Assembly: GCA_048595045.1 (NCBI GenBank) | Contig: JBMDXS010000075.1 | Span: forward strand, 355-64,354 | Reading direction: 5' to 3' | DNA length: 64,000 nucleotides | From: Acidimicrobiia bacterium | GTDB taxonomy: Bacteria; Actinomycetota; Acidimicrobiia; Spongiisociales; ZC4RG35 | Shown: in pieces, positions 45,075-64,000 of the stretch | Numbering within the stretch: position 1 is the first letter of the stretch | How the letters are laid out: each line of letters opens with the position of its first letter | Notes under the pieces: model-generated | Told to the model about the DNA's origin: nothing | Database searches by the model: none | Seen by the model: only the letters and a program-made list of their open reading frames with translations | Program-made: the position numbers and the translations under genes

Positions 45075-46295
45075 TCAGACCAGTAGCCGCTCCTCGTATT
45101 CGACCCTGGACAGCAGATGGGGGTCTCCTTCGGTGATGAGCACCATGTCCTCGAGCCTGACTCCGCCCCCGCCCCGCACATTTGGCACCCAGACCAGGGG
45201 CTCCACCGCGAACACCATGTTGGGCTGGAACTCATAGGTGGTAGCCCCGGGCAGGGTCTCCCCTATGTACGGCGGCTCGTTGGCCCCCATCCCGATCCCG
45301 TGCCCGATGAAGAGGCTGAATAGATGGTCGTCGAGCCCGTGCTCGGCGATCTTGGCGATGATGGCGTCGGCACAGTCCTGGTTGGTGTTTCCGGGCCTCA
45401 TCTTGGCCAGGCCCGCCATCAGCCCTTCATAGACCGCGGTGTAGATCTCCTGCTGCTCCTTCGAGGGCTTGCCCACGATGGTGGTTCGTCCGATGTCGGC
45501 GAAATAGCCGTTCCACATCGCGCCGATGTCGATGAAGCAGAGGTCCTGGTTGCGGATGATCTTGTCCGTGGCCAGCCGGTGCGGCGGCGACATGTGCTCA
45601 CCGGTCGCCACGAATGGGGTGATGACATGAGCCATCTCTCCCCCGAGCTGGAACAGGGTCTGCATCGCGTCGGCAGCGACGTCGAGCTCACGACGCCCGG
45701 CCCTGGTCTCGTCGAGGGCGCGCTGGGTGACCGAGTCCCCAATGGCGCATGCCTCCTCGATCACGGCGATCTCGAGGTCTGTTTTGATCCAGCGAGCCTG
45801 CTGCATGACGGTGTCCCCGTCGACGAGCTCGAGATCGGGCAGATGGGAGCGCATCGAGTCGATGAATGAGATGTTGGCCTGGTCCACCGCCAGCCTCCCA
45901 CTTCCGAGCCCTCTCGTCTGAAGCAGCGGTATCAGGATGTCCTTGACGAACCCGTCGACCAGCTCACGCTGCTCCATGATCGGGACAGCGTGGGCCTCGC
46001 CGATCCAACTCATGCCGAAACGGGCCTTGTCGATCTCCCCACCCGACCCCAGTAACACCGGGCCGTCGTCGGCAGTGAGAAGTGCCCCGTTCAGCGATGT
46101 GGTCTTTCCGGCTATGAGCTGCGCCCGCAGCGAGGTCAGATAACGGACGTTTTCGTCCTTCCAGACCAGCACGGCATCGGCATCGGATCCGGCCAGGGCC
46201 TCATGGGCCTTTCCCACCCTTTGCCGGCGGAGTTCGGCGAAGTCGTAACGATCCTCCCAATCGACGGCGAATGGCCCTTTGGCATATCCGGAGAT
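45075..46295 (-). CDS. M24-family metallohydrolase (creatinase/Xaa-Pro peptidase fold)
   Basis: All five canonical metal ligands are present (FIDIG, ADIGRT, GHGIG, AVEP, RLED). The 5' end is uncertain: ATC 46295 sits behind a perfect AGGAGG, versus GTG 46367. See findings. Confidence 0.8.
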   Translation of the reverse strand: MSGYAKGPFAVDWEDRYDFAELRRQRVGKAHEALAGSDADAVLVWKDENVRYLTSLRAQLIAGKTTSLNGALLTADDGPVLLGSGGEIDKARFGMSWIGEAHAVPIMEQRELVDGFVKDILIPLLQTRGLGSGRLAVDQANISFIDSMRSHLPDLELVDGDTVMQQARWIKTDLEIAVIEEACAIGDSVTQRALDETRAGRRELDVAADAMQTLFQLGGEMAHVITPFVATGEHMSPPHRLATDKIIRNQDLCFIDIGAMWNGYFADIGRTTIVGKPSKEQQEIYTAVYEGLMAGLAKMRPGNTNQDCADAIIAKIAEHGLDDHLFSLFIGHGIGMGANEPPYIGETLPGATTYEFQPNMVFAVEPLVWVPNVRGGGGVRLEDMVLITEGDPHLLSRVEYEERLLV

Positions 46296-46340
46296 CGCTC
46301 TACCTCCTGTTCTCGGGATGGAATCCGGCCCCAGCGGATC

Positions 46341-46374
46341 CCACGTTCTATATTCGGTATAGTACACGACGTGG
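46341..46374. promoter_or_regulatory. nested inverted repeats in the M24/GntR divergent region (candidate operator)
   Basis: CCACGT...ACGTGG encloses the AT-rich TCTATA-TTCGG-TATAGT. Confidence 0.35.
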
Positions 46375-46412
46375 AGGACCGGCTCCGCCTCGATGTATCG
46401 CGCTCTCGCCGG

Positions 46413-47045
46413 GTGACGGCGGTCGATCTGGTCCGTGACGCCCTGAGATCGGCCATCCTGCGAGGTGACCTGCCCGGCGGATCGCGTCTGGTCCAGACCG
46501 AGATCGCCAGCCAGTTGGATGTGAGCACCACCCCGGTGCGTGAGGCGATGCGCGACCTGGCCAGTGAGGGGCTGATCACACTCGACAGTCATCGCATCGG
46601 GACAGTGCGCAAGCCCGATTGGGACGAGATGGTTGAGATCGTGGAGATGCGCCGGGCCCTCGAGGGTCTGGCCATCCAGAGGGCGATGGCCGGCATAACA
46701 GCCGACGAAATCGCCGAGGCCAAGGAGATAGCCACGGACCTCTCCCAGGAAGAGGACCTCGGATCATGGGTCCAGGCCAATATCCGGTTCCACTCCATCT
46801 TCCATCGCGCCACCCGGGCACGGCGTCTGGCGGGTGTGCTCCTCGCCCTCGAAGAGGCGGGCGGGGTGTTCGTGGCGCAGGCTCAGCAGCTTCACCCCGA
46901 GATCCGGCGGCGGGCGGTCGCCGATCATTTCGCCCTCCTCGACGCCTTCACCGCCGGCGACGCCGATCGGGCGCTCCAGATCCAGAGCGGGCATGTCAAC
47001 CTTCCGCTGGAGGCGTTCGAGGCCGATACCGACCGACCGGGCTGA
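46413..47045 (+). CDS. GntR-family (FadR/FCD subfamily) transcriptional regulator
   Basis: Start at GTG 46413. wHTH LVQTEIASQLDVSTTPVREAMRDLASEGLI plus a helical FCD-like C-terminus. Confidence 0.85.
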   Translation: MTAVDLVRDALRSAILRGDLPGGSRLVQTEIASQLDVSTTPVREAMRDLASEGLITLDSHRIGTVRKPDWDEMVEIVEMRRALEGLAIQRAMAGITADEIAEAKEIATDLSQEEDLGSWVQANIRFHSIFHRATRARRLAGVLLALEEAGGVFVAQAQQLHPEIRRRAVADHFALLDAFTAGDADRALQIQSGHVNLPLEAFEADTDRPG

Positions 47046-50947: not shown

Positions 50948-51982
50948 TCAGTCGAGGCCGTCTTCGACGCCGAGTCGTGCGCCCAGCTCCCGGAGTTGGC
51001 CGAGGAGGACGTCTCCCAACGGGATCCCGTCCCGAAGCCGGGCCGACGTCTCCGCGGCCGCCCTGTCGCCCGGAAGGTGGACCTGGCCATCTCCCCCCGA
51101 CGCCCGCAGTGTGGCGAGATGCCTTCCCATCTCAGACTTGAACTCGCCGAGGTCACGGAACAGGTCGGGCCGCATCACGAAGATGGCCTGGCCGGTATTG
51201 GCCGGCTGACCGGGCACGTGGCGATGGTCGATCACATCTTCACCGAATGCGGCTCCGTTGAGGACCCCGGCGAGGAGACCCAGGCCGAGATTGAGGCCCG
51301 ATCCCTTGTAGCCCCCGATGGGCATGAGGAACCCCTCGTCGGCCCGGGCCGGTTCGAGGATGGGTCGGCCGTCCCCGTCCACCACCCAGCCCTCTGGCAT
51401 CTGCTCCCCCGCCTGGGCCAGCACCTTGATCGTCCCGTGGGAGGTGACGGTGGTGGCGATGTCGAGCAGGAAGGGGTGGGCCTCGGTGGGTATGGCGATG
51501 GAGATCGGGTTGGTCCCGAGGAGCCGCTCGCGCCCACCCCAGGGAGGCATGACATTGGCACTGGCCACGGCGGTGTACATGGCGATCAGCCCTCGGTCGG
51601 CTGCCATCGCGGCATAGACCCCGGCCGCACCGGCATGGTTGGAGTGGACGGTGCCCACCCACGCCATCCCGGATTCGATGGCCTTGCTCACTGCTGTCTC
51701 GGTGGCGATCGTCATCACCACCTGCCCCAGGCCGTTGTCGCCGTCGACGAGAGCACTGACCGGCGTCTCCCGACGCAGCTCGATCTCCGGCCGGAGCTCG
51801 ATACCACCGGCGTCGATCCTCCCCGCATACTGGGGCAGTCGGATGATGCCGTGCCCGGTGCGGGCTCGGAGGTCTGCCTCGAGGAGGCGCCTCGCAGTGA
51901 CTTCTGCGTGCTCGGGGAGGGCGCCGAGCGAGACCAAGACCTCGCGGCAGAATGCGAGGAGACGGTCGAAGCCGAATCTCAC
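50948..51982 (-). CDS. Ldh_2-family (malate/L-lactate/sulfolactate/diketogulonate-type) dehydrogenase
   Basis: GTG 51982 overlaps the cupin stop (GTGA). Family motif TGHGIIRLPQY. Confidence 0.78.
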   Translation of the reverse strand: MRFGFDRLLAFCREVLVSLGALPEHAEVTARRLLEADLRARTGHGIIRLPQYAGRIDAGGIELRPEIELRRETPVSALVDGDNGLGQVVMTIATETAVSKAIESGMAWVGTVHSNHAGAAGVYAAMAADRGLIAMYTAVASANVMPPWGGRERLLGTNPISIAIPTEAHPFLLDIATTVTSHGTIKVLAQAGEQMPEGWVVDGDGRPILEPARADEGFLMPIGGYKGSGLNLGLGLLAGVLNGAAFGEDVIDHRHVPGQPANTGQAIFVMRPDLFRDLGEFKSEMGRHLATLRASGGDGQVHLPGDRAAAETSARLRDGIPLGDVLLGQLRELGARLGVEDGLD

Positions 51983-52362
51983 CGCGCGAACTGGTCCACC
52001 GTCTCGCCGGTGTCGGCGAAAGTCCGTGTCACCTCGGTGCTCCCGTACACCCAGAGGATCCGCATCCGCCCGGTGCCGGTGTTGATGAAGCGATGCCACT
52101 CCCCGGGCGCGATCTGCGTCGTGTCGTAGGGCCGGGCCGGCACCTGCTCCCCATTGAGCTCGGCCATCCCCTCGCCTTCGACGACGGTCACCTGCTCGAT
52201 GGTGTTGTGACTGTGGAGACGGATGCTGGTCCCGGGCGGAAAGGTGGTGATCCCCATGGTGAAGCCCTGTCCGTCGAGAGGGTTGGGGGTGAGGCGAACA
52301 CTCTCGATCCCGTCCCCTCGCGACACCGGGTCGGCCGCGTCGAACCTGATCAGCCCCGCCAT
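51979..52362 (-). CDS. small cupin-domain protein
   Basis: 127 aa with cupin motif 1 (HSHNTIE...G) and motif 2 (PGEWHRFIN). Confidence 0.8.
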   Translation of the reverse strand: MAGLIRFDAADPVSRGDGIESVRLTPNPLDGQGFTMGITTFPPGTSIRLHSHNTIEQVTVVEGEGMAELNGEQVPARPYDTTQIAPGEWHRFINTGTGRMRILWVYGSTEVTRTFADTGETVDQFAR

Positions 52363-52390
52363 CGGCCTCGCCCCGAATCAGACCCATCGC

Positions 52391-53134
52391 TCATGCCATG
52401 AACCTACCGCCATTGACCGAAACCGTTTCCCCGGTCATGAACCCTGCCTCTGCGGAGGCAAGGAACAGGATCCACTCCGCCACCTCCTCCGGTGTCTGAT
52501 AGCGCCCGAGCGGTATGCCGGCGGCCGTGGCGGCCAACTGGTCCTGGTCACGCAGCCGCCGAATCCGCTCGGTGAGAACGGCCGATGGGGCCAGGGCATT
52601 GACGGTGATCCCCTCTCCAGCCAGCTCCGCGGCCAGGGCGCGGGTGAGCCCGTGCACCCCCGCCTTGGCAGCCACGTAGGGCGGAGCGGTCTGCCAGCCT
52701 GCGGTGAGGCCGGCCAGGGAGCCGAGGTTGACGATGCGGGCGGCGTCCGAGCGGCGGAGGAGGGGCAAACCGGCTCGGGTCATCAGGAACACCGTTGTCA
52801 GGTTGCTGTCCACGATGTCACGCCATTGATCCAGCGAGGTCTGTTCCAGCCCCAAGGCCTGAGGAAACCCGCCTGCGTTGTTGACCAGGACATCGATGCG
52901 TCCCCAGGCCCGCTCGACCACGTCGACCGCGGCCGCGACCTCTTTCTCGGAGGTGAGGTCGCAGTGGATGAACGTGGCAGATTCGATCTCGGCAGCGGCG
53001 GCCGGACCCGCTTCGTCGTCGATGTCCACGAGATACACGATGGCGCCTTCTCGGGCGAAGGCCCGGGCCGCGGCCTTCCCGATCCCGACCGCGGCGCCGG
53101 TCACCACCACGACTCGATCGGCGAAGCGGGTCAT
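52391..53134 (-). CDS. short-chain dehydrogenase/reductase
   Basis: TGAAVGIGKA, NNAG and the catalytic YVAAK. Confidence 0.9.
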   Translation of the reverse strand: MTRFADRVVVVTGAAVGIGKAAARAFAREGAIVYLVDIDDEAGPAAAAEIESATFIHCDLTSEKEVAAAVDVVERAWGRIDVLVNNAGGFPQALGLEQTSLDQWRDIVDSNLTTVFLMTRAGLPLLRRSDAARIVNLGSLAGLTAGWQTAPPYVAAKAGVHGLTRALAAELAGEGITVNALAPSAVLTERIRRLRDQDQLAATAAGIPLGRYQTPEEVAEWILFLASAEAGFMTGETVSVNGGRFMA

Positions 53135-54051
53135 GTCAGCGCCAGGCCAAGCAGTCCATCGGGGAGTTTGCGGTGGGCCAGCTCGATTGCCGGGCCGGAG
53201 ACAGCCACGAACTCGTCACGTTCCTCCTCGGTGAGGTCGACGAACATCGCACCGGCCCCCTCGAGCCGCACTCGCAGCGACCCCTCGAGATCTGCCGCGG
53301 CAACTCGCTGGGCATCCACGGCCCGGGTGGCGGCCTGAGTGACGAGGTCATGCAGATCGGGGTCGAAGCCCTCCAGGGTGGGCCGGTGACAGAACAGCCC
53401 CCTGGCCCCATAGAGATGACCGGTCATCGTGAAATGGCGGTGCACCTGGTCCACCCCGTAGGCAACCGTGTTGGCCAGCGGGTTCTCCTGGGCATCGACA
53501 TCGAGACGGGTGATCAGCTGGATCCCGGCACTCAGCTCCACCGCCACGGGGATGGCGCCCCAGGACCGGATCAGCTCTTCATGGATCTCGTTTGGCTGGA
53601 GACGCACCGTCATGCCTTCGCAGTCTGCGGGACGATGGATGGGGCGGAGCCGATTGGTCATGTGGCGGAACCCGTTGTCCCAGAAACCGAGCACGTCGAA
53701 GCCGGTCCGGCCTCTCACCGCCCCGGCCAGCGCCTCGCCGAGGGCGCCGTCTAGGGCATGGTGGGCGGTGGGCAGGTCGGGGAATAGAAACGGGGTCTCC
53801 AAGACGTCGAGCTCGGGGACACGGTGGCCGAGATAGCTCGACGAGAAATAGCAGAGGAACATGTGCCCGGCCTCGACAAGCTCGAAGAGATCGGTGTTGG
53901 GGCGCCCCTCCTCCATGATGTTCCAGGTGACGTCGACTGCCACGTCCCCGTCGGTCCCCTCTTCGACCAGCCGTTTGAAGGTCTTGAGACCCTCGCCATG
54001 GGCGCTCTGTTCTGGCCCATAACCGCCGATCCATAGCTTGCGGGGGCTCAT
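53131..54051 (-). CDS. DctP-family (TRAP-type solute-binding) protein lacking a signal peptide
   Basis: 306 aa with DctP-like WDNGFRHMTN, MTVRLQP and DAQENP. The ORF starts at the mature-domain equivalent (MSPRKLWIGGYGPEQSAHGEG). ATGA overlap with the SDR gene. Confidence 0.75.
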   Translation of the reverse strand: MSPRKLWIGGYGPEQSAHGEGLKTFKRLVEEGTDGDVAVDVTWNIMEEGRPNTDLFELVEAGHMFLCYFSSSYLGHRVPELDVLETPFLFPDLPTAHHALDGALGEALAGAVRGRTGFDVLGFWDNGFRHMTNRLRPIHRPADCEGMTVRLQPNEIHEELIRSWGAIPVAVELSAGIQLITRLDVDAQENPLANTVAYGVDQVHRHFTMTGHLYGARGLFCHRPTLEGFDPDLHDLVTQAATRAVDAQRVAAADLEGSLRVRLEGAGAMFVDLTEEERDEFVAVSGPAIELAHRKLPDGLLGLALT

Positions 54052-54140
54052 GCCTTCCTGCCCTCCGGTCGGCTGGAAGTCTCCATAGTCGATCGTATAT
54101 GATGCAGGATCGTCCTGTCGAACGGGGTTAGGAGAGCAAA

Positions 54141-55373
54141 ATGGCCGAGGAGCCTTGGAAGACCGACCAGTGGTTCTCCAGCCCGTGGAACTATCTGCCC
54201 GAGGTGACCGGGGACTTTCGATTCCCCGAATCGGTCCAGGTCCACGATGTCACTCTCCGTGACGGGGAGCAACAGGCGGGCGTCGAGTTCACCTCCGACG
54301 ACAAGCTGAGGATCGCTACCGCCCTGGCCGAGGCCGGCATCCATCGCATCGAGGCCGGCCTGCCCGCGGTGTCACCGTCCGACGCAGACGCCATCAAGAG
54401 GATGGTGGCCGAAGGGCTCCCCACCGAGATCTACGCCTTCAGCCGGTGCATGGTTCCCGACGTGGAGCTCGCCCTCGATTGCGGGGTCAAGGGTGTGGTC
54501 ATGGAGGTGCCTGCCAGCCACCACCTGATCGAGAAGGCGTATCGATGGCCGATCGAGAAGGCGATCGAGGCATCGGTCGAAGCGACCAAATACGCCCATG
54601 ACAACGGCCTGGAGGTGACCTTCTTCCCGATCGACGCCACCCGGGCCACCATGACCGAGCTGCTCGACGACCTCGAGCAAGTGGCCACAGAGGGCCATGT
54701 CGACAAGATCGCTCTCGTCGACACCTTCGGAGTCACCTCGCCTCACGCCATCCGGTACTACACGCAGCGGGTGCGGGAGCGCATGGCCGTGCCTCTGGAG
54801 ACCCATTTCCACATGGACTTCGGGATGGGGGTGGCCAACACCGCCCTGGCCGTGGCCGAGGGCGCCTCGGTGATACACACCACGGTGAGCGGCATCGGCG
54901 AGCGGGCCGGCAACGCACCCACCGAGGAGACGGTCCTCGCCCTCCTCACCATGTATGGGATCGACACAGGCATCGACACCACCAAGTTCACCGAGATCGC
55001 CCGTCTGGTGGCAGAACTCTCCGGTGTCACCCAGCCGGCCAACCGCCCCGTGACCGGCGAGATGCTCTACAACGTCGAGTCCGGGATCATCGCCACTTGG
55101 GTCAAGAACGTCGGCGACGAGTTGCTCGAGCCCTTCCCCTACCGTCCCGAGCTAGTGGGCCAGGCTTCTCCCGAGATCGTCCTCGGGAAGGGCTCGGGGC
55201 TGGACTCGGTGGCGATCTGGCTGGGTCGCCATGGGATCCACGACGCCGAGACCAAGGAGATCGAGGCGATCCTCGCCGAGGTCAAGGGCCGCTCCCTGGC
55301 CACGAAGGGCCTGCTCGACGACGAGGAGTTCCTCGAGATGGTCCGGGAGGTGATCCCGGATAAGGTCGGCTAG
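54141..55373 (+). CDS. HMGL-like / pyruvate carboxyltransferase-domain enzyme (homocitrate/citramalate/isopropylmalate synthase family)
   Basis: 410 aa with HDVTLRDGEQ, HFHMDFGMGVAN and GIGERAGNA. Confidence 0.82.
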   Translation: MAEEPWKTDQWFSSPWNYLPEVTGDFRFPESVQVHDVTLRDGEQQAGVEFTSDDKLRIATALAEAGIHRIEAGLPAVSPSDADAIKRMVAEGLPTEIYAFSRCMVPDVELALDCGVKGVVMEVPASHHLIEKAYRWPIEKAIEASVEATKYAHDNGLEVTFFPIDATRATMTELLDDLEQVATEGHVDKIALVDTFGVTSPHAIRYYTQRVRERMAVPLETHFHMDFGMGVANTALAVAEGASVIHTTVSGIGERAGNAPTEETVLALLTMYGIDTGIDTTKFTEIARLVAELSGVTQPANRPVTGEMLYNVESGIIATWVKNVGDELLEPFPYRPELVGQASPEIVLGKGSGLDSVAIWLGRHGIHDAETKEIEAILAEVKGRSLATKGLLDDEEFLEMVREVIPDKVG

Positions 55374-55406
55374 CAACGAGAAGACCCCAGGGAGGTAGAA
55401 GCAGGG

Positions 55407-56645
55407 ATGAGAGAAGCATTCTTCGGGCTGAGCACCGACTGGAAAGAGGGGATCAACTGGGCCAACGTCAGGGATTGGCGTCTGAAGCGGGCCCATGCCG
55501 CCATGGAGCGACATGGTCTCGGGGCCCTGCTCCTCTTCTACGACGAGAACATGCGCTATGTGTCTTCGACGCTCACCCCGGGGTGGAACCGTCTCAAGCC
55601 AGGTCTTCGTTACGTGGTCCTCACGGCCGGCAAGCCCCCAATCGTCTACGAACAGGGCGACATCGGCTTCCACCTCGAGGTGCACAACCCCTGGATCCCC
55701 AAGGAGAACATCCGCTACTCGTACGCCTGGATCAAGGGTGCGGTGGGCCCTGCGGCGGAGCAACAGGTCACCAAGTTCGTCGATTCCCTGATGAACGACC
55801 TGGAGCAGGCCGGCGTGAAGGACCAACCCCTGGGAGTCGATTTCATCGACATCAACCTCATCAAGCAGTTCGAGCAGCGTGGCCTGACATGGACCGACGG
55901 CATGACCCCGATGATGGAGGCCCGCGCCATCAAGAGCCCCGACGAGATCAAGGCGTTCTCCATCGTCGGTGCCATCTGTGACTACGTCCATTACGAGATC
56001 ACGAACTTCATCAAGCCGGGCCTCACCGAGAACGAGGTGGCCGCATTCGGGTTCGAAAAGCTCTACTCCCTGCCCGGCATGGAGGACGTCGAGGACGTGA
56101 TCGTGTCCTCGGGGCCCAACGCCTGGCCCAACTGGCGAAACTTCTCCGACCGCATGATCCGGCCCGGTGAGCTGGTGATCGTCGATCTGGCCGCCCTCAC
56201 CTGGAACGGGTTCAAGTCCTGCGTCTATCGCACCTATTGCGTAGGTGGGAAGCCCACCGACGAGCATCAGAAGACGTACGACCTGGCCCACAAGTGGCTC
56301 TGGGACTCGATCGAGGCGACCGGGCCCGGGGTGACGACGGCGGACGTGGCCTCGAAATGGCCGTCGGCCAAGGAGGTGTGGGGCTATGAGGAGGAGGATC
56401 AAGCCGCAGCCAACTTCTGGGGCCACGGGCTCGGTCTCGCCCAGTACGACCCGCCTGTGATCTCGCGGATCTGGTCTCTCGACCACCCGGTCGAGATCCA
56501 ACCGGGGATGACCTTCGCCTTGGAGACCCAGCACGGCAAGCTCCACGACCACGGAGTACGTCTCGAGGAGATGCTCTACGTGACCGAGACCGGCATCGAG
56601 ATGGTCTCCAGCTACGCCTCCCACGAGATCATCTCGGTCACCTGA
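55407..56645 (+). CDS. M24-family hydrolase paralogue with a non-canonical metal site
   Basis: 412 aa, alignable over its full length with the 45075 gene. Motifs VDLAA, SCVYRT (Cys where Asp is expected), GHGLG, ALET and RLEE. Confidence 0.8.
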   Translation: MREAFFGLSTDWKEGINWANVRDWRLKRAHAAMERHGLGALLLFYDENMRYVSSTLTPGWNRLKPGLRYVVLTAGKPPIVYEQGDIGFHLEVHNPWIPKENIRYSYAWIKGAVGPAAEQQVTKFVDSLMNDLEQAGVKDQPLGVDFIDINLIKQFEQRGLTWTDGMTPMMEARAIKSPDEIKAFSIVGAICDYVHYEITNFIKPGLTENEVAAFGFEKLYSLPGMEDVEDVIVSSGPNAWPNWRNFSDRMIRPGELVIVDLAALTWNGFKSCVYRTYCVGGKPTDEHQKTYDLAHKWLWDSIEATGPGVTTADVASKWPSAKEVWGYEEEDQAAANFWGHGLGLAQYDPPVISRIWSLDHPVEIQPGMTFALETQHGKLHDHGVRLEEMLYVTETGIEMVSSYASHEIISVT

Positions 56646-56652
56646 CCGGGTC

Positions 56653-58032
56653 TTGCTCCACGACCTCGACAGCGAAGCTGCCCTCGACCCGGCTCGGGTC
56701 GGGGCCAAGGCAGCCTGGCTGGGTCGAGCCCGACGCGCCGGGCTCCCGGTCCTGCCCGGGCTGGTGGTCGACTCGGCGGCGTCGCTCGAACACATGTCCC
56801 TCGGGGCGAAGATGCTGGCCGATCGTGGCTCCGGTGGGGCACGTCTCGCCATGACAGCCGCTCCACCACCGCTGGCCGACGAGTTGGTGGCCCGTGCCGG
56901 GCGGCTGGGTGCAGTGCTCGTCGCCCGGTCATCGACCAGGCTCGAGGCATCGGGCGAGTGGTCTGGCGCCTTCACCTCCTATCTCGAAGTCTCACCGGCC
57001 GAGCTCCCCAGGGCGGTGACCGGGTGCTGGGCTTCGGCGTTCTCGGTGGCGGCCCTGGAACGACAGTCGGCCACCGGGGTCGCCCCTGGGTCCGTCGCGA
57101 TGGCGGTGCTGGTGCAGCCGGCCATCGAACCGGAAGCCGGAGGCACGGCGCGTTTCGAGACCGACGGCACCATGGTGGTGACCGGGGTGAAGGGGTCTCC
57201 CGCACCCTTGCTCCAGGGGTGGGCCAGTGGCCACACCGGGCCGGAGCTGGTCGAGGTGATCGGTGTAGAGGCAATCGAGCGGGTGGAGTCGATCCTCCGC
57301 GAGGCACACGAGGCCACGGGTGCCAATCGTTGTGAATGGGCCCTGCTCGACGGCGTGGTCTGGGTCCTCCAGCTCGGCCAGGCGGTACCAGAGGATCGAT
57401 CCCGGAGAATCGACCCCGGCCCGATGGATCCTCGACTCACCCGGATCGCCCGGATCGTGGTCGGATACGGGGAAGAGGCCTGGGAGCGATACCTCGTCGA
57501 GAGGGGGATGGGCCACTCGATCGACCAGGTCCTTCTGGGACCGGACCCTGGCCCGGCACTGGACGCGATCGACCGGGCGCCACCGATCCGGCGCCACGCC
57601 GGCGAGCTGCACGAGCCGGCCGGGCAACCGGACATCGAGCACCAGGGCCGGCGCCGCGGGGTTGGGCGTTGGGAGCCCTTCGTCGCATCCATCGTCCTCG
57701 GCAACGGCCACCGGGTCCAGGGAACACCCGCTTCGGCAGGCATAGCAGCCGGGGTGCTGACCCGTCCCGAGGACTTCCGGGTCCCCTTGCCGTCGCGTCG
57801 CGTCCTGGCCGCCGGGCAGCCGGTTCCCAACCTGGCCCCCCTCCTCTGGGATGCCGCGGCCATCGTCACCGAGACGGGGAGCCCCGCCGCCCACCTGTTC
57901 GAGTCCGCCCGGGCTCTGCGGGTCCCGGCGGTCTGTGGGGTCGCCATCCCGCCGGGTGATTTGATCGTGGCCGTTGACGGGCAAGATGGGGTGGTGGCGA
58001 CCATCTCTCTATACGGGGAAGACCATGTCTGA
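56653..58032 (+). CDS. PEP-utilising-enzyme-like protein: PPDK_N ATP-grasp plus swivel His domain, no TIM-barrel domain
   Basis: 459 aa with GAKAAWLGRARRAGLPV, VARSSTRLEASGEWSGAFTS, and C-terminal GTPASAGIAAG...TETGSPAAHLFESARALRVPAV. TTG start. Confidence 0.75.
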   Translation: MLHDLDSEAALDPARVGAKAAWLGRARRAGLPVLPGLVVDSAASLEHMSLGAKMLADRGSGGARLAMTAAPPPLADELVARAGRLGAVLVARSSTRLEASGEWSGAFTSYLEVSPAELPRAVTGCWASAFSVAALERQSATGVAPGSVAMAVLVQPAIEPEAGGTARFETDGTMVVTGVKGSPAPLLQGWASGHTGPELVEVIGVEAIERVESILREAHEATGANRCEWALLDGVVWVLQLGQAVPEDRSRRIDPGPMDPRLTRIARIVVGYGEEAWERYLVERGMGHSIDQVLLGPDPGPALDAIDRAPPIRRHAGELHEPAGQPDIEHQGRRRGVGRWEPFVASIVLGNGHRVQGTPASAGIAAGVLTRPEDFRVPLPSRRVLAAGQPVPNLAPLLWDAAAIVTETGSPAAHLFESARALRVPAVCGVAIPPGDLIVAVDGQDGVVATISLYGEDHV

Positions 58033-58900
58033 GATGATCGGGGTGATCGGCCTCGGGGTCATGGGCTCGGCGATGGCACGCAACCTGCTCGCCGCCGGGC
58101 ATGAAGTGGTCGGCTACGACGTCGAGCCATCCCGCCTCTCCACGTTTGCCGATTTCGGGGGAGAACCGGCCCACTCGGCCGCCGAGGTCTCTGGCCTCGC
58201 CGGGGTCGTCGTCTTCTCGCTGCCGACCACGGGCGCGCTGGGGGCTGTGGCCGGCGAAGTGGCGGAGGTGGGACCAGAAGGGCTGTTGTGCCTGGAGACG
58301 GGGACGTTCCCACTCGCCGACAAGCTCGCGGCGCGTGATGTCCTCGCCGGGTCCGGGATCGAGCTGATGGACACCCCGCTCTCCGGGACCGGCCTCCAGG
58401 CGGCAGACGCCACCCTCGTCGTCTTCGCCTCGGGAAGCGAGGACGGGTTCGACAGGGCTCGGCCCGTCTTCGATGCGATCGGGCGATCGACTCACTACCT
58501 GGGCGAGTTCGGCAACGGCTCGAAGATGAAGTATGTGGCCAACCTCCTGGTCGCCGTTCATGGTCTCGCCGCCGCCGAGGCCCATGCCCTGGGAATCGCC
58601 GCCGGGCTCGACCCCCAACGCGTCCAGGAGGTGATGGAGGACGGGGTCGGCTCCTCCAAGATCTTCGAGATACGCGGACCGATGATGGTGGCCGACGACT
58701 ACCCGGCTGCGGCGCGTCTCGACATCCTGCTCAAGGACTCGCGAATCATCCGAGAGTTTGCACGGTCGGTGGGCGCACCCACTCCCCTACTCGATGCAAC
58801 CGTTCCCAGCTACGAGGCGGCCAGCGAGGCGGGGCTGGGCGACCTCGACGCCGCTGCCCTCTGCAGGTACCTGGAGGAGCTGGGCGGGCTGGAACGGTGA
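58025..58900 (+). CDS. 3-hydroxyisobutyrate/6-phosphogluconate-dehydrogenase-like NAD(P) oxidoreductase
   Basis: ATG 58025 (MSEMIGVIGLGVMGSAMARNL) overlaps the upstream gene by 8 nt. Confidence 0.85.
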   Translation: MSEMIGVIGLGVMGSAMARNLLAAGHEVVGYDVEPSRLSTFADFGGEPAHSAAEVSGLAGVVVFSLPTTGALGAVAGEVAEVGPEGLLCLETGTFPLADKLAARDVLAGSGIELMDTPLSGTGLQAADATLVVFASGSEDGFDRARPVFDAIGRSTHYLGEFGNGSKMKYVANLLVAVHGLAAAEAHALGIAAGLDPQRVQEVMEDGVGSSKIFEIRGPMMVADDYPAAARLDILLKDSRIIREFARSVGAPTPLLDATVPSYEAASEAGLGDLDAAALCRYLEELGGLER

Positions 58901-61197
58901 TCGGACAGCCTCTCCGCCGGGTGGAGGACCCGAGGCTCGTCACCGGACAGGGTCGGTACGTCGATGACATCGCGCCCCCCGGGGTGCTCCACGCCGTCTT
59001 CGTGAGAAGTGTCGAGGCCCACGCCACGATCGGCTCGATCACCCTGGACGAGACTGGGATCGGGGAGCTCTTTACCGCTGCCGACCTCGGCCTGGAGCGC
59101 CCGATGCCCAACCAATACCCATCACCTCTGATCACCCAGTCGATCCAGTCCCCACCCCTCGCCATCGACGAGGTCTGTTATGTGGGGCAGCCCGTGGCAG
59201 TCGTCGTGGCAGAGACGGCGGCGGGAGCCGTGGACTGCGCCGACCTGGTGGGCGTGGACTACGAGACATTGCCGGTGATCATCGACCATCGTCGAGCCCT
59301 GGACCCAGAAGCTGCCCCGGCCCACCTCGACTCTGAGACGAACCTGGTCGGAACCCTCACCGCATCCTTTGGGGATGTCGACGCTGTCTTCACCGCTGCC
59401 CCACACCGGATCACCGTCGAGGTCGACCAGCACCGCGGCGCCCTGGCCTCCATGGAGGGCAGGGCGGTCCTGGCCCGCTGGGACGATGCCGAGCGCCGGC
59501 TCACGCTGTGGAGCTCCAGCCAGGCGCCACATGCCATCCGGGCTCAGCTGGCCGGCTATCTCGGTCTCTCCCCCGATGAGCTGCGAGTGATCGCGCCCGA
59601 CGTCGGCGGTGGCTTCGGGCCGAAAGCGGCCATCTACGCCGAGGAGTACGTCGTAGCCGCGCTGGCCCTGAAGTTGAGACGCCCGGTGAAGTGGACCGAG
59701 CGTCGCCGGGAGCATTTCGTAGCAACCAACCAGCAGCGTGGCCAGAGCGGAAACGTCGAGGCGGCCGTCGACCGGGAGGGGCTGATCCTCGGGCTTCGGG
59801 TCAGGCTGGTGCACGACTGCGGGGCCTATGTCCCCTACGGGATCGTGGTCCCGATGACCACGCTGCGTCTCCTCTCCGGGCCCTACGCCATCCCCGCTCT
59901 CGACGCCGCCATCGACGTGGTCTTCACCAACGCAACACCCACCGGGGCGATCAGGGGTGCCGGCCGCCCCAATGCCACCTTCGCCATCGAGCGAGTGGTC
60001 GACGCCATCGCCCGCGAGCTGGGGCTGGACCGGGCCGAGGTGAGGAGACGCAACTTCGTCCGACCCGATCAGCTGCCCTATGTCGTGGACATCGCCGCCT
60101 CCGACGGCCGCAGGGTGACCTACGACAGTGGCGATTACGGGGCTGCGCTCGATCGGGCGTTGCAGGTGGCCGACCTCGACGGGTTCGAGGAACGAAGGTC
60201 ACGCTCGGCCGACTCGGGCCGTCTTCGCGGCTTCGGCATCGCCTCCTATGTCGAGGACACCGGGCTCGGGCCGTACGAAGGCGTGCGTATCGAGGTGCTC
60301 ACCAATGGCGAGGTCCTGATCGAGACCGGGGCGAGCTCGCAAGGACAGGGTCACGCCACGGTGCTCGCCCAGATCTGCGCTTCCCATCTCGGCGTCAGCC
60401 CGGATCGGGTCAGGGTTCGGTCCGGCGACACGGCCGCCTACGGGCACGGCATCGCGACGGTGGCCAGCCGTAGCGGCCAGACCACCGCATCGGCCGCCCA
60501 TGTAGCCGCGGGCGATCTCGCCGAAACCGTCAAGCGCCTCGCCGCCGACCGTCTCGAGGCTTCGAGCCAGGACATCGTCCTGGCCGACGGAGTGGCCATG
60601 GTCGTGGGCCAACCCGGGACCGAGATCCCTCTCGGCGACCTGGCCGCGGGTCTTCAGCCCAAGCTGGGCGCCGTCCTGCCGGAGGGCCAGCAACGACCAG
60701 GGCTCTCGGTGGAGCGCGTCCTCCCCTTCGACGGCCTGGCATATACCTTCGGTACCCATGTGGCCGAGGTGGAGGTCGACCCGGAGACCGGCCATGTGGT
60801 CGTCGTCGGCTACGTCGTCGTCCACGACTGCGGGACGCTGCTCAACCCGATGATCGTCGATGGCCAGATCGATGGCGGCGTCGCCCACGGGTTGGGCAAT
60901 GCCCTATCGGAAGAGGTTCGGTTCAGCGAAGACGGCCAGCCGCTCACCACATCGTTCATGGACTACCGACTGATCACGGCCGCCGACATGCCTCCGCTGA
61001 CCAAGATCCACACCGAGACTCCGTCGCCGACCAACCCGCTGGGCGCAAAGGGCGCCGGCGAGGGTGGCACGATCCCCACCGCCGCTGCAGTCGCCTCCGC
61101 AGTGGAGCATGCGCTGGTGGGGATGGGGATCACCGTCGACCACTATCCGATCGGCTCGGAGTGGGTGCGCCGGGCGATCTCCCAAGCCTCCAAGTGA
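58897..61197 (+). CDS. xanthine dehydrogenase/CoxL-family molybdopterin-binding large subunit
   Basis: 766 aa with an a/b-hammerhead N-terminus (GQPLRRVEDPRLVTGQGRYVDD), GGGFGPK and AIRGAGRP. GTGA overlap with the upstream gene. Confidence 0.88.
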   Translation: MIGQPLRRVEDPRLVTGQGRYVDDIAPPGVLHAVFVRSVEAHATIGSITLDETGIGELFTAADLGLERPMPNQYPSPLITQSIQSPPLAIDEVCYVGQPVAVVVAETAAGAVDCADLVGVDYETLPVIIDHRRALDPEAAPAHLDSETNLVGTLTASFGDVDAVFTAAPHRITVEVDQHRGALASMEGRAVLARWDDAERRLTLWSSSQAPHAIRAQLAGYLGLSPDELRVIAPDVGGGFGPKAAIYAEEYVVAALALKLRRPVKWTERRREHFVATNQQRGQSGNVEAAVDREGLILGLRVRLVHDCGAYVPYGIVVPMTTLRLLSGPYAIPALDAAIDVVFTNATPTGAIRGAGRPNATFAIERVVDAIARELGLDRAEVRRRNFVRPDQLPYVVDIAASDGRRVTYDSGDYGAALDRALQVADLDGFEERRSRSADSGRLRGFGIASYVEDTGLGPYEGVRIEVLTNGEVLIETGASSQGQGHATVLAQICASHLGVSPDRVRVRSGDTAAYGHGIATVASRSGQTTASAAHVAAGDLAETVKRLAADRLEASSQDIVLADGVAMVVGQPGTEIPLGDLAAGLQPKLGAVLPEGQQRPGLSVERVLPFDGLAYTFGTHVAEVEVDPETGHVVVVGYVVVHDCGTLLNPMIVDGQIDGGVAHGLGNALSEEVRFSEDGQPLTTSFMDYRLITAADMPPLTKIHTETPSPTNPLGAKGAGEGGTIPTAAAVASAVEHALVGMGITVDHYPIGSEWVRRAISQASK

Positions 61198-62396
61198 GCC
61201 GGCACCCCAAGTCGACCGAGCCATTTCGGATCGGCTCACTGACCGGCTCCGTCTACGTGCCGAACCTCCTGTTCTCCATCGGGCAGGGGGCGGCCATACC
61301 GGTCATCGCCCTGGTCGCCCTCGATCTGGGTGCCTCCCCCGCAGCGGCCGGGTTCATCGTTGCCCTCCGCGGTATCGGGACCCTCGTGTTCGACATCCCG
61401 GCGGGTTTGATGGTGGCACGCATCGGGGAGCGCTGGTCTATGTTGTTGGCCACGGGCACCCTCGCCCTGGTCGCGGTCGGGATCGCCTCCCAGCCCAGCA
61501 TCGCCGTGTATTCGGTCCTGGTCTTTCTGCTCGGCTGCGCCTGGTCGGTTTGGGCGCTGGCTCGTCTCACCTACGCCACCGAGGCCACCCCGCTCCGCCA
61601 GCGGGGGCGGGTGATGTCGATCATGGGCGGCACCATGAGGGCCGGGCAATTCATCGGCCCGTTGATCGGCGGCCTCGTCATCATCCCACTCGGCCTGGCC
61701 GGGCCATTCTTCGCTCAAGCCCTGTTCGCCGTCGCCGCCGCGGTGACCCTCTTCTTCACGGTCGAGCCCACCGTCTCCGACTCCGGCGTAGAAACCGAGC
61801 CGACGCCCTCGCTGCGGACACTGCTCAGTGACAGTGGCCAGGTCCTCCGGACCGCCGGTTTCGTCGCGGTGGCCATCCAGGTGCTGCGGACCGCCCGTCA
61901 GGCCATCGTCCCGCTGTGGGGTGATCATCTCGGCCTCGGCGCCAGCCAAATCTCCCTGATCTTCGGAGCCTCGGCGGGGATCGAGATGGCCATCTTCTAC
62001 CCGATTGGGATGTTGATGGACCGGAAGGGACGCAAATGGGCTGCGGTTCCCTGTCTCATCTTGCTGTCGGTGGGGATGGCGCTGATTCCCCTCACGTCCA
62101 CCTTCGCCGGGCTGCTCGTCGTCGGGCTCTTCCTCGGTCTGGCCAACGGCCTCGGCGCCGGGATCAACATGGTCCTCGGATCCGACTTCTCCCCACGGCT
62201 CGGGCGGAGCCAGTTCTTTGGGATCTGGCGTCTCATCAGCGACCTCGGAACCGCAGGGGGGCCGCTGCTGGTGGCCGCCGTCACCTCGATCGCCTCACTA
62301 GGGGCGGCGGCGCTGGCCGTTGCGGGCTTCGGCCTGGTCGGCGCCACCGTCATGTGGCGGGCGGTGCCCGAGACCCTTCAAGCCGACCTCGAATGA
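61194..62396 (+). CDS. MFS transporter
   Basis: GTG 61194 overlaps the upstream stop (GTGA). About 12 TM segments and an MFS loop motif GMLMDRKGRK. Confidence 0.82.
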   Translation: MSRHPKSTEPFRIGSLTGSVYVPNLLFSIGQGAAIPVIALVALDLGASPAAAGFIVALRGIGTLVFDIPAGLMVARIGERWSMLLATGTLALVAVGIASQPSIAVYSVLVFLLGCAWSVWALARLTYATEATPLRQRGRVMSIMGGTMRAGQFIGPLIGGLVIIPLGLAGPFFAQALFAVAAAVTLFFTVEPTVSDSGVETEPTPSLRTLLSDSGQVLRTAGFVAVAIQVLRTARQAIVPLWGDHLGLGASQISLIFGASAGIEMAIFYPIGMLMDRKGRKWAAVPCLILLSVGMALIPLTSTFAGLLVVGLFLGLANGLGAGINMVLGSDFSPRLGRSQFFGIWRLISDLGTAGGPLLVAAVTSIASLGAAALAVAGFGLVGATVMWRAVPETLQADLE

Positions 62397-62484: not shown

Positions 62485-63786
62485 GTGTTCACCACTGTCA
62501 CACGGGCGAGGCCAGGGGAGGATGATCGGTTGACGGATCGGCTTCGACATTGGGGACGTCTGGCGGTGGTCGACGTCACCCCATTGCGCCGCGTCCCTGG
62601 CTATCGGTGGCTCTTCTCGGGGATGTTCTTCGCCCAGGCCGGCAGGCAGATGACGGTCGTGGCCGTGCCAGTGCAGGTGTACCAATTGACCGGGTCGACC
62701 CTGGCCGTGGGCCTGCTCGGCCTGGTCCAGTTGGTCCCACTCCTCCTGGTATCCGTGGTGGGGGGTGCTCTCGCCGACGCGGTCAATCGACGGAAGCTGA
62801 TAATCACCTCACAGCTGACCCTGGCCGCTACTGCGGCGGGGCTGTTGTGGAACTCCTTGGCAGAACAACCTCTCGTGTGGCCGCTATTCGCCCTTGTCGC
62901 CATCAATGCCGGTGTCTCTGCGATCGATAACCCGGCCCGTCATGCCATCGTCCCCGGTCTGGTCGGTCGGGATCTGCTTCCCGCCTCGCTCGCCCTCAAT
63001 CAGACGATGACCAATGTCGCCCACGCCGCCTTCCCGGCCATAGCCGGTCTTCTCATCGCGACGGTGAGCCTGCCGGTGACATACGGCACCGAAATGGTCA
63101 TGTTCCTCATCAGCGCCGTCCTGATGCGCCGCGTCCCCGACGTCGCCACAATCGGTGGGGGCCGAGATTTTGGCTTCTCGTCGATCGCCGAGGGATTCCG
63201 ATACCTGAAGGACCAGCGGGTGATCCAGGCCACCCTCCTCATCGATCTCAACGCAATGGTCTTCGGGATGCCCACCGCGCTGTTCCCGGCCATCGGGACC
63301 GAGGTGTTCGGTGGCAATGCGTTCACCGTAGGCCTCCTCTACGCAGCGCCGGGGGTGGGCGCCCTCCTGGCAGCACTCACGTCGGGCTGGGTGTCGACGG
63401 TGGTCCGTCAGGGGCGGGCCACCGTCTTCGCAGTGATGGGGTGGGGTCTCGCCATCGCCATCTTCGGCCTCACCGACTCCCTGCCGTTGGCCCTGGTCAT
63501 GCTGGGCTTGGCCGGCGCGGCCGACGTCGTATCCGCCATCTTCCGGGGGAGCATCGTGCAGTTGACTGCTCCCGACGAGCTACGGGGTCGCATGGGCGGG
63601 ATGCACACGGCAGTCGTGGCCAGTGGGCCCCGTCTCGGGGATCTCGAAGCCGGTGTGGTCGCCGAGTTGACCTCGATCAGGTTCAGCGTCGTATCGGGTG
63701 GCCTCGCCTGCATCGTCGGGGCCTGGCTGGTCGCCCGCTGGGCGCCCGAGTTCCTCCACTACCGGTTCGAGCCCGGCAAGCGATGA
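62485..63786 (+). CDS. MFS transporter (EntS/MFS_3-like)
   Basis: 433 aa, polytopic, with loop motif GGALADAVNRRKL. Exact start uncertain. Confidence 0.8.
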   Translation: MFTTVTRARPGEDDRLTDRLRHWGRLAVVDVTPLRRVPGYRWLFSGMFFAQAGRQMTVVAVPVQVYQLTGSTLAVGLLGLVQLVPLLLVSVVGGALADAVNRRKLIITSQLTLAATAAGLLWNSLAEQPLVWPLFALVAINAGVSAIDNPARHAIVPGLVGRDLLPASLALNQTMTNVAHAAFPAIAGLLIATVSLPVTYGTEMVMFLISAVLMRRVPDVATIGGGRDFGFSSIAEGFRYLKDQRVIQATLLIDLNAMVFGMPTALFPAIGTEVFGGNAFTVGLLYAAPGVGALLAALTSGWVSTVVRQGRATVFAVMGWGLAIAIFGLTDSLPLALVMLGLAGAADVVSAIFRGSIVQLTAPDELRGRMGGMHTAVVASGPRLGDLEAGVVAELTSIRFSVVSGGLACIVGAWLVARWAPEFLHYRFEPGKR

Positions 63787-63794
63787 GCCGACGG

Positions 63795-64000
63795 TCAGCC
63801 CAGCCCGAACACCCTGGCCGCGTTGCCACCCGAGATCGCGGCCCGATCGGCGTCGCTCAGACCCTCGGTGGCATCGATGAGTTGCACCGGGTCGGTCTCC
63901 CCCATGTCGAAGGGGTAGTCGGTGCCCAGCATGACCCGATCGACGCCGACGATGTCGACCAGATGACGCAGATAGAGCGGCTGGAAGACCATCGTGTCGT
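63795..64000 (-). CDS. amidohydrolase_2-family enzyme, 3' fragment (gene continues beyond window end)
   Basis: The C-terminus ...VDRVMLGTDYPFDMGE...AISGGNAARVFGLG is typical of the ACMSD-type amidohydrolase family. Confidence 0.6.
   Translation of the reverse strand, partial: DTMVFQPLYLRHLVDIVGVDRVMLGTDYPFDMGETDPVQLIDATEGLSDADRAAISGGNAARVFGLG

Follow-up and report, generated by a model that had tools for sequence, protein, structure and literature searches.

The swivelling-histidine dikinases are a small and well-studied group comprising phosphoenolpyruvate (PEP) synthase, pyruvate phosphate dikinase (PPDK), the glucan dikinases, rifampin phosphotransferase (RPH) and the phenolic dikinases, and in every characterized member that acts on a small molecule the acceptor site is, to our knowledge, a dedicated homologous domain. 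Here we describe a six-gene, plus-strand operon (54141-62396) in a 64-kb stretch of DNA from an Acidimicrobiia bacterium (contig JBMDXS010000075.1; the whole stretch is called the window), in which a compact dikinase without such a domain is encoded directly after a metalloprotein of the M24 family. We propose, at a rough probability of 0.5, that these two proteins together make up a dikinase that forms AMP and has a small hydroxy- or oxo-acid as its substrate, within a catabolic gene set, and we consider it about an even bet that the operon as a whole is part of a conserved, uncharacterized set of genes by which a small hydroxy- or oxo-carboxylic acid is used. The proposal starts from the anatomy of the genes, the folds of their products, conserved catalytic residues and a strict pairing of the two genes across phyla, all of which were observed. 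No paper describing the gene pair was found in the literature searched, the coverage of which is incomplete, and none of the six operon proteins reaches any NCBIfam equivalog cut-off, in keeping with an earlier note on this DNA, made from the sequence alone, which knew of no described pathway combining such enzymes.

The closest described relatives of the dikinase, RPH (PDB 5hv1, 5hv3, 5fbs) and the PigC/RedH ligases, likewise begin with an ATP-grasp and end with a phosphohistidine swivel domain; no NCBIfam model matches the N-terminal part better than RedH/PigC, and RPH is the best fold match. RPH is a protein of ~865 aa with an acceptor domain of ~430 residues between the two parts, whereas the dikinase of the window has 459 aa and lacks it, and the family scores are 28-50 bits against cut-offs of 999-1350. 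We know of no RPH, PigC or RedH that is encoded after an M24 gene, whereas the window-type dikinase always is. A split over two proteins has been described for HpeHI, PpsAB and CreHI, which are two-component AMP-forming dikinases working via phosphohistidine and encoded in catabolic clusters (PMC12167813). The M24-dikinase pair resembles them in both respects, and HpeI (9goj) is among the fold matches of the dikinase, but the division is a different one: HpeHI separates the ATP-grasp (HpeI) from swivel plus acceptor (HpeH), whereas in the window ATP-grasp and swivel share one chain and the presumed acceptor protein has the M24 pita-bread fold, unrelated to the HpeH-type acceptor domain.

The Pfam matches of all six operon proteins lie above the gathering scores and support every domain call of the earlier note:

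54141..55373, plus strand: HMGL-like synthase, 410 aa (HMGL-like, 218 bits)
55407..56645, plus strand: DddP-like M24 metalloprotein, 412 aa (Peptidase_M24, 118 bits)
56653..58032, plus strand: compact dikinase, 459 aa, TTG start (PPDK_N, 39.8 bits; PEP-utilizers, 31.8 bits)
58025..58900, plus strand: beta-hydroxyacid dehydrogenase of the HIBADH family, 291 aa (NAD_binding_2, NAD_binding_11)
58897..61197, plus strand: CoxL-type molybdopterin large subunit, 766 aa (Ald_Xan_dh_C, MoCoBD_1, MoCoBD_2)
61194..62396, plus strand: major facilitator superfamily (MFS) transporter, 400 aa from the GTG at 61194 (MFS_1, 126 bits)

To the earlier note the present analysis adds the conservation of gene content across phyla (contig L154), the single M24 orthogroup, a control at synonymous sites, an ACMSD-like gene as a near-invariant member of the set, a motif in the divergent spacer, and the comparison with the mycobacterial protein VadK.

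The compact dikinase and the M24 protein encoded before it

The earlier note had read the dikinase (56653-58032) as a PEP-synthase-like protein with the ATP-grasp and swivel-histidine domains only, and Pfam bears this out. An N-terminal ATP-grasp domain (PPDK_N, cut-off 27 bits) and a C-terminal swivel domain (PEP-utilizers, cut-off 23.1 bits) are matched and nothing else, no PEP/pyruvate barrel or other acceptor-binding domain being found by Pfam, and the chain ends ~45 residues past His414. Aligned across 18 members of the family, residues K19, R92-S93-S94, E98, E228, Q240 and H414 are invariant; the ATP-grasp Glu and Gln are taken as Mg ligands. His414 occupies the phosphocarrier position of the canonical motif (TGSPAAHLFESARALxVPAV); the swivel motif TGSPAAHLFESARAL aligns position by position with the canonical G-G-x-T-S-H-A-A-x-x-A-R and is degenerate in the window's dikinase. 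The AlphaFold 2 model, with a predicted local distance difference test score (pLDDT) of 77, has two well-defined domains and a poorly predicted helical segment between them, and Foldseek returned RPH first (5hv3/5hv1, E 2e-14), followed by PPDK and HpeI. The ATP-grasp matches that of RPH (5hv6) with E 1e-11, and the fold alignment to RPH extends from the N-terminal ATP-grasp to the C-terminal swivel domain; as modeled, the layout is that of RPH/PigC minus the ~430-residue acceptor domain. The fold thus suits the logic of phenylphosphate synthase or rifampin phosphotransferase that the earlier note had invoked, RPH being the best structural match. Among NCBIfam models RedH scores best (50 bits, cut-off 1350), RPH reaches 28 bits (cut-off 999), and the short-PPDK model PRK05878 matches the His domain alone, with 19 bits; taking sequence and fold together, the closest matches are RedH/PigC, PRK06241-type PEP synthases and RPH. 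An antibiotic kinase was rejected on the grounds of the missing acceptor domain and the catabolic context. The window's dikinase clade (408-460 aa) has lost ~55-80 of the middle-segment residues that most Acidimicrobiia orthologues keep (515-545 aa; e.g. P0020), and the M24 protein beside these shortened dikinases stays 97-99% identical.

The M24 protein (55407-56645) has the pita-bread fold in its AlphaFold 2 model (pLDDT 89.6), and the best 50 of its 237 PDB fold matches with E ≤ 0.001 are all M24 proteins. The best Foldseek match over both domains is the dimethylsulfoniopropionate lyase DddP (4rzy/4s01; TM 0.83, root mean square deviation 2.6-3.1 Å), with prolidases, ectoine hydrolase and creatinase ranking after it. 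DddP (PDB 4rzy, 4s00, 4b28) is likewise a non-peptidase M24 protein, with a small carboxylate at its metal center, but the two proteins share 24% identity and differ in the second metal-binding Asp, which is Cys here, and at the position of DddP Asp377, which is Gln346. A true dimethylsulfoniopropionate lyase was rejected because the score against the NCBIfam DddP model (101.6 bits) is far under the cut-off of 600 and the catalytic Asp is not retained. Alignment of the ligands gives a metal site of Asp260/Cys272/His340/Glu373/Glu387, in which Cys (KSCVYRT) replaces the second, bridging Asp; this is the altered site to which the earlier note had pointed, and Cys272 is kept in at least 98% of 56 orthologues and is also conserved in the wider subfamily. 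The protein therefore has the fold of the M24 metallopeptidases (methionyl aminopeptidase, prolidase, aminopeptidase P) but not their five-ligand Asp/Asp/His/Glu/Glu set.

The constraint on the M24 protein exceeds that on every other gene compared in these loci. Across 56 sequences 276 of its 412 residues are invariant, and identity within the class Acidimicrobiia is 86-99%. Compared with the window's own proteins, M24 orthologues have a median identity of 93%; the corresponding medians are 88% (HMGL), 72-77% (the remaining enzymes) and 52% (dikinase). At fourfold-degenerate third positions all the compared genes share only ~45-50% identity, that is, these sites are saturated, and the conservation of M24 consequently reflects purifying selection; recent horizontal transfer was rejected as its cause.

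In Acidimicrobiia the M24 and dikinase genes are mostly separated by 2-13 nt or overlap by 4 nt, and the dikinase starts with TTG or GTG. Translational coupling is often seen for consecutive enzymes, and the two proteins could be just that: the middle region of the dikinase would bind and phosphorylate a free small molecule, and the M24 protein would act on the product or in the prior step, where it could eliminate or hydrolyze a phosphate ester, with no joint active site. The helical segment between the ATP-grasp and swivel domains (~60-130 residues, its length varying by clade) speaks for this explanation, as do anaerobe M24 paralogues, described below, that adjoin the same kind of dehydrogenase without a kinase. 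On the other hand, this segment is the least conserved and least confidently modeled part of the protein and is largely deleted in the window's clade, characterized relatives all have their acceptor site in a large dedicated domain (PMC12167813; PMC4844700), and the extreme constraint on M24 would be left unexplained. We consider two separate enzymes unlikely.

Conservation of the pair within and beyond Acidimicrobiia

Nearly all homologues of the dikinase are from uncultured Acidimicrobiia found in soil, straw, roots and sponges. The order of the operon recurs in dozens of independent contigs, down to ~40% dikinase identity, which makes the arrangement more than chance, and the gene order is thereby conserved outside this genome, a matter that the earlier note had left to a co-occurrence search. 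We counted the neighbors of the dikinase by running tblastn with the window's proteins against 62 genome loci, the denominator being the loci with room for the gene:

M24, directly upstream: 55/55 loci
ACMSD-like Amidohydro_2, opposite strand, downstream: 39/41 loci
HMGL: 41/49 loci
EamA: 32/40 loci
GntR/FCD regulator: 31/40 loci
Zinc-dependent alcohol dehydrogenase (Zn-ADH): 28/37 loci
HIBADH: 36/52 loci
DctP-like protein: 32/48 loci
CoxL: 27/48 loci
MFS: 24/46 loci
Second MFS (EntS/MFS_3-like): 27/43 loci
Divergent four-gene set: 30-32 of 43-48 loci, frequent but not constant

After M24, the ACMSD-like amidohydrolase is the most constant neighbor, and minimal loci retain M24, the dikinase, sometimes HIBADH, and the ACMSD-like gene. 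The MFS gene and CoxL are accessory, lineage-specific additions. The view of the earlier note that tight coupling of the six genes implies one pathway or complex is accordingly borne out in part: M24, dikinase, HMGL and hydroxy-acid dehydrogenase travel together in Acidimicrobiia, and orthologues of M24 (64% identical), HMGL (57%) and HIBADH (44%) do so in distant bacteria, but the six do not form an invariable unit, since CoxL and MFS are dispensable, and the ACMSD-like gene, which lies outside the operon, is more constant than four of the six. Two minimal M24-dikinase-HIBADH loci (L004, 3111-5470, and L026), one of them from a sponge symbiont, have as neighbors on the opposite strand an Opp-type peptide ABC importer, a RidA-like gene and genes resembling glycine reductase (GRDB, Gly_reductase).

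In a search of 1.8 billion representative sequences the Cys-type M24 proteins proved to be a wide, unnamed subfamily (30-41% identity). In two context-checked members the M24 gene is followed by a compact dikinase of 424-429 aa with the canonical GGSTSH motif, which belongs to a second dikinase family only 28-31% identical to the window's dikinase. A metagenome scan with this second type returned 80 loci, 54 of which have room for M24; its gene immediately precedes the dikinase in 47 of these, and a Zn-ADH gene lies between in the other 7. A D-2-hydroxyacid dehydrogenase gene (2-Hacid_dh) is found downstream in 41/51 loci and an HMGL-like gene, 56-59% identical to that of the window, in 12/36. 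The second family has at least 6055 members in Gamma-, Alpha- and Betaproteobacteria and Bryobacteraceae, every named one a metagenome-assembled genome, and sequence searches of both dikinase families found no cultured carrier. Metagenomes of soil, roots, straw, sponges and marine samples contain the pair, which is present in Actinomycetota, Proteobacteria and Acidobacteriota and is thus common rather than an oddity.

Despite this divergence of the dikinases, the M24 proteins linked to them are one orthogroup, 61-94% identical across phyla and with 47 clade-specific invariant positions; those of Proteobacteria and Acidobacteriota are 61-64% identical to the window's M24, whereas unlinked Cys-type M24 proteins are only 35-47% identical to the linked ones. 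The link is asymmetric, in that no dikinase of either family was seen without M24, whereas M24 paralogues do occur without a dikinase, as in four context-checked members from anaerobic Firmicutes, an archaeon and others.

Nearly the whole gene content of the window, in a different order, is present on a 1.2-Mb contig from a distant lineage (L154). Here M24, dikinase, 2-Hacid_dh, HMGL, a cytochrome c and Amidohydro_2 lie on one strand, with HIBADH, a molybdenum enzyme with a fused 2Fe-2S domain, Zn-ADH and MFS alongside, and identity to the window is 64% for M24, 57% for HMGL, 44% each for HIBADH and Zn-ADH, 31% for the dikinase and 29% for the molybdenum subunit. In the part of this contig at 13548-18172 the molybdenum enzyme (905 aa) has its own Fer2_2 domain and adjoins a dihaem-like cytochrome c gene, and the window's CoxL has neither.

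Among the paralogues without a dikinase, that of an Ihubacter-like anaerobe (L068, 7001-11551) is a Cys-type M24 gene followed by three genes under a sigma-54 activator, which encode a tartronate-semialdehyde-reductase-like HIBADH, a 238-aa cupin and a sodium:solute symporter; this locus and the window have the same three enzyme families. No family model names the paralogous-M24 contexts, nor the ACMSD-like gene or the cupin of the window. One candidate M24 fusion (P0123, M24 plus ADH_N) was discarded because it looks like a merged gene call. In a single sequence, P0246, part of a Cys-type M24 paralogue (36% identical) runs on into a Biotin_lipoyl domain; this is either a real fusion hinting at a carboxylase context or a merged gene call.

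The pairing also bears on whether the dikinase phosphorylates a small molecule at all. VadK (Rv1127c) is a mycobacterial truncated PPDK without an acceptor domain that autophosphorylates at His422, binds methylcitrate-cycle enzymes, pulling down the nearby-encoded methylcitrate synthase and dehydratase, and has been proposed as a regulator (PMC13400623). The dikinase of the window resembles it in size, in its two-domain layout of ATP-grasp and His domain, in its origin in Actinomycetota, in its position beside a Claisen-type synthase gene and in its association with partner enzymes, and could likewise be a regulatory kinase that autophosphorylates at His414 and controls M24 or HMGL by binding or protein phosphorylation. 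The Cys-type M24 paralogues that function without a dikinase fit this explanation, since the kinase could then be an add-on. However, VadK derives from PPDK and has prpDC as neighbors, whereas the window's dikinase is not of the PPDK/VadK lineage (nearest the RPH/PRK06241 branch, with 19 bits to PRK05878), its neighbor is M24, and there is no prpC or prpD in the locus. Many loci, moreover, keep the pair without HMGL, and the strict termination-reinitiation spacing with M24 in >100 loci suggests a fixed stoichiometry, a feature found more often in enzyme subunits than in regulators. A regulatory role is in our estimate quite unlikely.

The proposed reaction and its substrate

A two-protein dikinase is the simplest reading of the pair because the dikinase has all the parts for a phosphohistidine and no substrate site, and depends across phyla on a hyper-conserved M24 protein. 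The M24 protein is a candidate acceptor module because its closest structural relative, DddP, binds a small carboxylate at the metal center. We infer a physical complex of the two proteins and, with it, the phosphoryl acceptor, the order of steps and the substrate class in the following scheme. The ATP-grasp domain would pyrophosphorylate His414 from ATP, autophosphorylation being predicted, and the gamma-phosphate would leave as Pi to give His414~P and AMP. The M24 protein would supply the acceptor site, its metal center holding the substrate carboxylate and a neighboring oxygen, and the swivel domain would hand the phosphate to a hydroxyl or enolate oxygen of the substrate, after which the DddP-like center may eliminate phosphate. 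The adjacent dehydrogenase (HIBADH here, D-2-hydroxyacid dehydrogenase in other lineages) would interconvert hydroxy and oxo acid, the HMGL-like synthase would condense the resulting 2-oxo acid with acetyl-CoA, and the ACMSD-like enzyme would remove or add a carboxyl group. CoxL might oxidize an aldehyde or a heterocycle, and like the MFS carriers would be a lineage-specific addition to this scheme.

Several observations weigh against such a scheme. The Cys-type M24 relatives work without a dikinase, so that the M24 fold as such needs no delivery of phosphate. The catalytic base of DddP, Asp377, aligns with Gln346, and a DddP-type elimination is therefore not simply inherited by this protein. 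The middle region of the dikinase (residues ~250-350), variable, helical and of low pLDDT, could bind a small acceptor itself. No natural M24-dikinase fusion was seen, in searches whose length filters would hide most fusions, and an AMP-forming kinase would be an expensive way to activate a common acid. Finally, soil metatranscriptome contigs of related strains (90-97% identical) jointly cover all six genes and span the HMGL/M24, M24/dikinase, HIBADH/CoxL and CoxL/MFS junctions (four junctions), but other such contigs cross the divergent spacer (window 53834-54430), so that DNA carry-over is possible and the support for one mRNA is weak.

As to the substrate, a small aliphatic acid is suggested by the constant neighbors, namely a beta-hydroxyacid or D-2-hydroxyacid dehydrogenase, a 2-oxo-acid/acetyl-CoA synthase and an ACMSD-type (de)carboxylase, and by the carboxylate transport proteins and GntR/FCD regulators that are also found among them. 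The earlier note had put forward N-heterocyclic or guanidino/amidino compounds, and the same loci could instead be read as a pathway for an N-heteroaromatic or phenolic carboxylate. A ring hydroxyl would then be phosphorylated by the dikinase, as in phenylphosphate synthase or HpeHI, and the ring hydroxylated by CoxL; the ACMSD-like enzyme would remove or add a carboxyl group beside the hydroxyl, and M24 would open an amide or amidine. In picolinate catabolism a molybdenum hydroxylase is used along with a decarboxylase of the Amidohydro_2 family, 39/41 loci contain the ACMSD-like gene, and a UbiD-family gene lies near the pair in one locus (L070). A published 3-hydroxypyridine cluster pairs a molybdenum hydroxylase with two PEP-utilizing proteins needed for activity; unlike in the window, the molybdenum enzyme of that cluster has its FeS and FAD subunits, and its kinase is a two-component one (bioRxiv 10.1101/2020.01.08.898148). 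CoxL is absent from almost half of the loci and lacks FeS/FAD partner genes, the conserved set includes neither a ring-cleavage dioxygenase nor a ring-hydroxylating oxygenase, the dikinase is missing the phenol site of rifampin-binding type that HpeH/PpsA have, and the constant neighbors are aliphatic hydroxy-acid dehydrogenases and the 2-oxo-acid/acetyl-CoA synthase. A ring substrate appears to us very unlikely.

The reading of the pair as a two-protein dikinase for a small acid can be taken one step further, to a new kind of dikinase in which M24 is the acceptor module, phosphate passes from the phosphohistidine to the Cys-containing metal center to give an enol phosphate or a phosphorylated hydroxyl, and ACMSD-type (de)carboxylation or an elimination follows. 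We put this forward tentatively, as a possible but doubtful extension. If true, it would be ATP-driven C-C or C-O chemistry of the phenylphosphate/PEP-carboxylase kind on an aliphatic substrate, carried out by a widespread enzyme with >6000 homologues of the proteobacterial type alone; the swivelling-histidine dikinase would have been assembled in a new way, by borrowing an unrelated metalloenzyme fold as acceptor site, and the M24 fold would have a new job. Identification of the substrate would annotate thousands of genes now called "Xaa-Pro peptidase" and "PEP-utilizing enzyme", and would probably reveal a missing route in the turnover of common organic acids.

Other genes of the locus and the divergent spacer

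It is not the case that each of the six genes has a close orthologue with an established unrelated function, because every NCBIfam equivalog score is far below its cut-off. The HMGL-like protein scores 308 bits as isopropylmalate synthase (cut-off 517), 290 as NifV (463) and 144 as citramalate synthase (450), and its best PDB match is homocitrate synthase 6ktq (1e-51). It matches NifV, CimA and LeuA over its full length, in the DRE-TIM barrel and subdomain II, and has no LeuA regulatory domain; the 2-oxo-acid and metal motifs RDGEQ, HxH and GERAGNA are kept, and HDVTLRDGEQ, HFHMDFGMGVAN and GIGERAGNAP are conserved in 43 orthologues. Unlike NifV, CimA and LeuA, its gene is linked to the M24-dikinase pair in two distant lineages and has downstream of it neither an isomerase gene of the aconitase type nor a dehydrogenase gene of the isopropylmalate-dehydrogenase type. 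For want of such partners, a true homocitrate or isopropylmalate synthase pathway was rejected. The HIBADH-like protein appears from its family scores to be nearest to L-threonate dehydrogenase (ThreonDh, 187 bits, cut-off 350) and tartronate-semialdehyde reductase (tartro_sem_red, 159 bits, cut-off 341), under both cut-offs.

CoxL scores 713 bits as group-5 carbon monoxide dehydrogenase (CODH; cut-off 950) and 564 as the alpha subunit of glyceraldehyde dehydrogenase (790), and matches 7dqx in the PDB at 6e-130. Compared with the molybdenum hydroxylases (xanthine dehydrogenase (XDH), CODH, aldehyde oxidoreductase), it is a large subunit with the molybdenum cofactor motifs and the catalytic Glu, GGGFG, AIRGAGR and KGAGEGG being conserved in 27 orthologues, but the FeS and FAD subunits are missing. 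No gene for either was found in the window or the related loci, except at the end of L029, and a tblastn search with a CoxS sequence, together with a motif scan, found no CoxS-like 2Fe-2S gene in the 64-kb window. A canonical three-subunit molybdenum hydroxylase operon was rejected. Since it retains the cofactor motifs and the catalytic Glu, CoxL probably has activity, together with partners whose genes lie elsewhere, but within the gene set it is optional, a side branch.

Around the operon the window contains the following features:

62485..63786, plus strand: second MFS transporter, EntS/MFS_3-like (MFS_3, 134 bits; NCBIfam EntS, 241 bits, cut-off 324)
63795..64000, minus strand: C-terminal end of an ACMSD-like Amidohydro_2 gene, cut by the window end (by homology to L001:12209-13207)
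50948..54051, minus strand: divergent four-gene set of a signal-less DctP-like protein, a short-chain dehydrogenase/reductase, a 127-aa cupin and an Ldh_2 dehydrogenase (Pfam, NCBIfam)
54091..54111, no strand assigned: 21-nt motif GATCGTATATGATGCAGGATC in the divergent spacer (alignment of 31 related loci)

The second MFS gene follows that of the operon after a gap of 88 nt. Of the ACMSD-like gene the last 67 codons (63795-63998) are present, 94% identical to the last 67 residues of L001:12209-13207, whose protein matches ACMSD in the PDB at 7.5e-60.

The six genes probably form one operon, and the junctions of 33, 7, -8, -4 and -4 nt and the 89-bp divergent spacer given in the earlier note proved correct to the base. 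The HMGL stop (55373) and the M24 ATG (55407) are separated by 33 nt, with a GGGAGG ribosome site upstream of the ATG as read from the sequence; the M24 stop (56645) and the dikinase TTG (56653) are 7 nt apart; the dikinase stop (58032) and the HIBADH ATG (58025) overlap by 8 nt (ATGTCTGA); and HIBADH/CoxL and CoxL/MFS overlap by 4 nt in GTGA at 58897-58900 and 61194-61197. A terminator scan found no convincing intrinsic terminator inside the operon, and consensus scans of the locus for promoters and terminators gave no usable site. The soil "metatranscriptome" libraries with contigs crossing 53834-54430 probably contain DNA, antisense read-through being the other explanation.

From the start of the divergent DctP-like gene (54051) to the HMGL ATG (54141) there are 89 bp. 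The motif GATCGTATATGATGCAGGATC in this spacer is an imperfect GATC-N13-GATC palindrome holding a TATGAT -10-like hexamer ~37 nt before the HMGL ATG; it is near-invariant in 31 loci, while the flanking spacer sequence varies freely, and it occurs once in the window, where 0 matches are expected by chance. It is probably an overlapping promoter and GntR-type operator. It was not found at the other divergent promoters of the island, and no regulon can be derived from it.

The DctP-like protein itself (53131-54051, minus strand; 306 aa) begins directly at the mature domain (MSPRKLWIGGYGPEQ...), without a signal peptide or lipobox, and no DctQ/DctM genes are nearby; its closest DctP structures are 4p9k, 4pak, 4pdd and 4pdh. 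The 306-aa form is found again in 32/48 related loci, and a cytoplasmic binding protein of the DctP family would be unusual. A second M24 gene (45075-46592, minus strand), 9 kb upstream of the operon, has the canonical Asp/Asp/His/Glu/Glu ligands (YFADIGRT) and adjoins a GntR/FCD regulator and a sugar ABC importer; its product is 29% identical to the operon M24 and recurs in several related loci at 73-88% identity.

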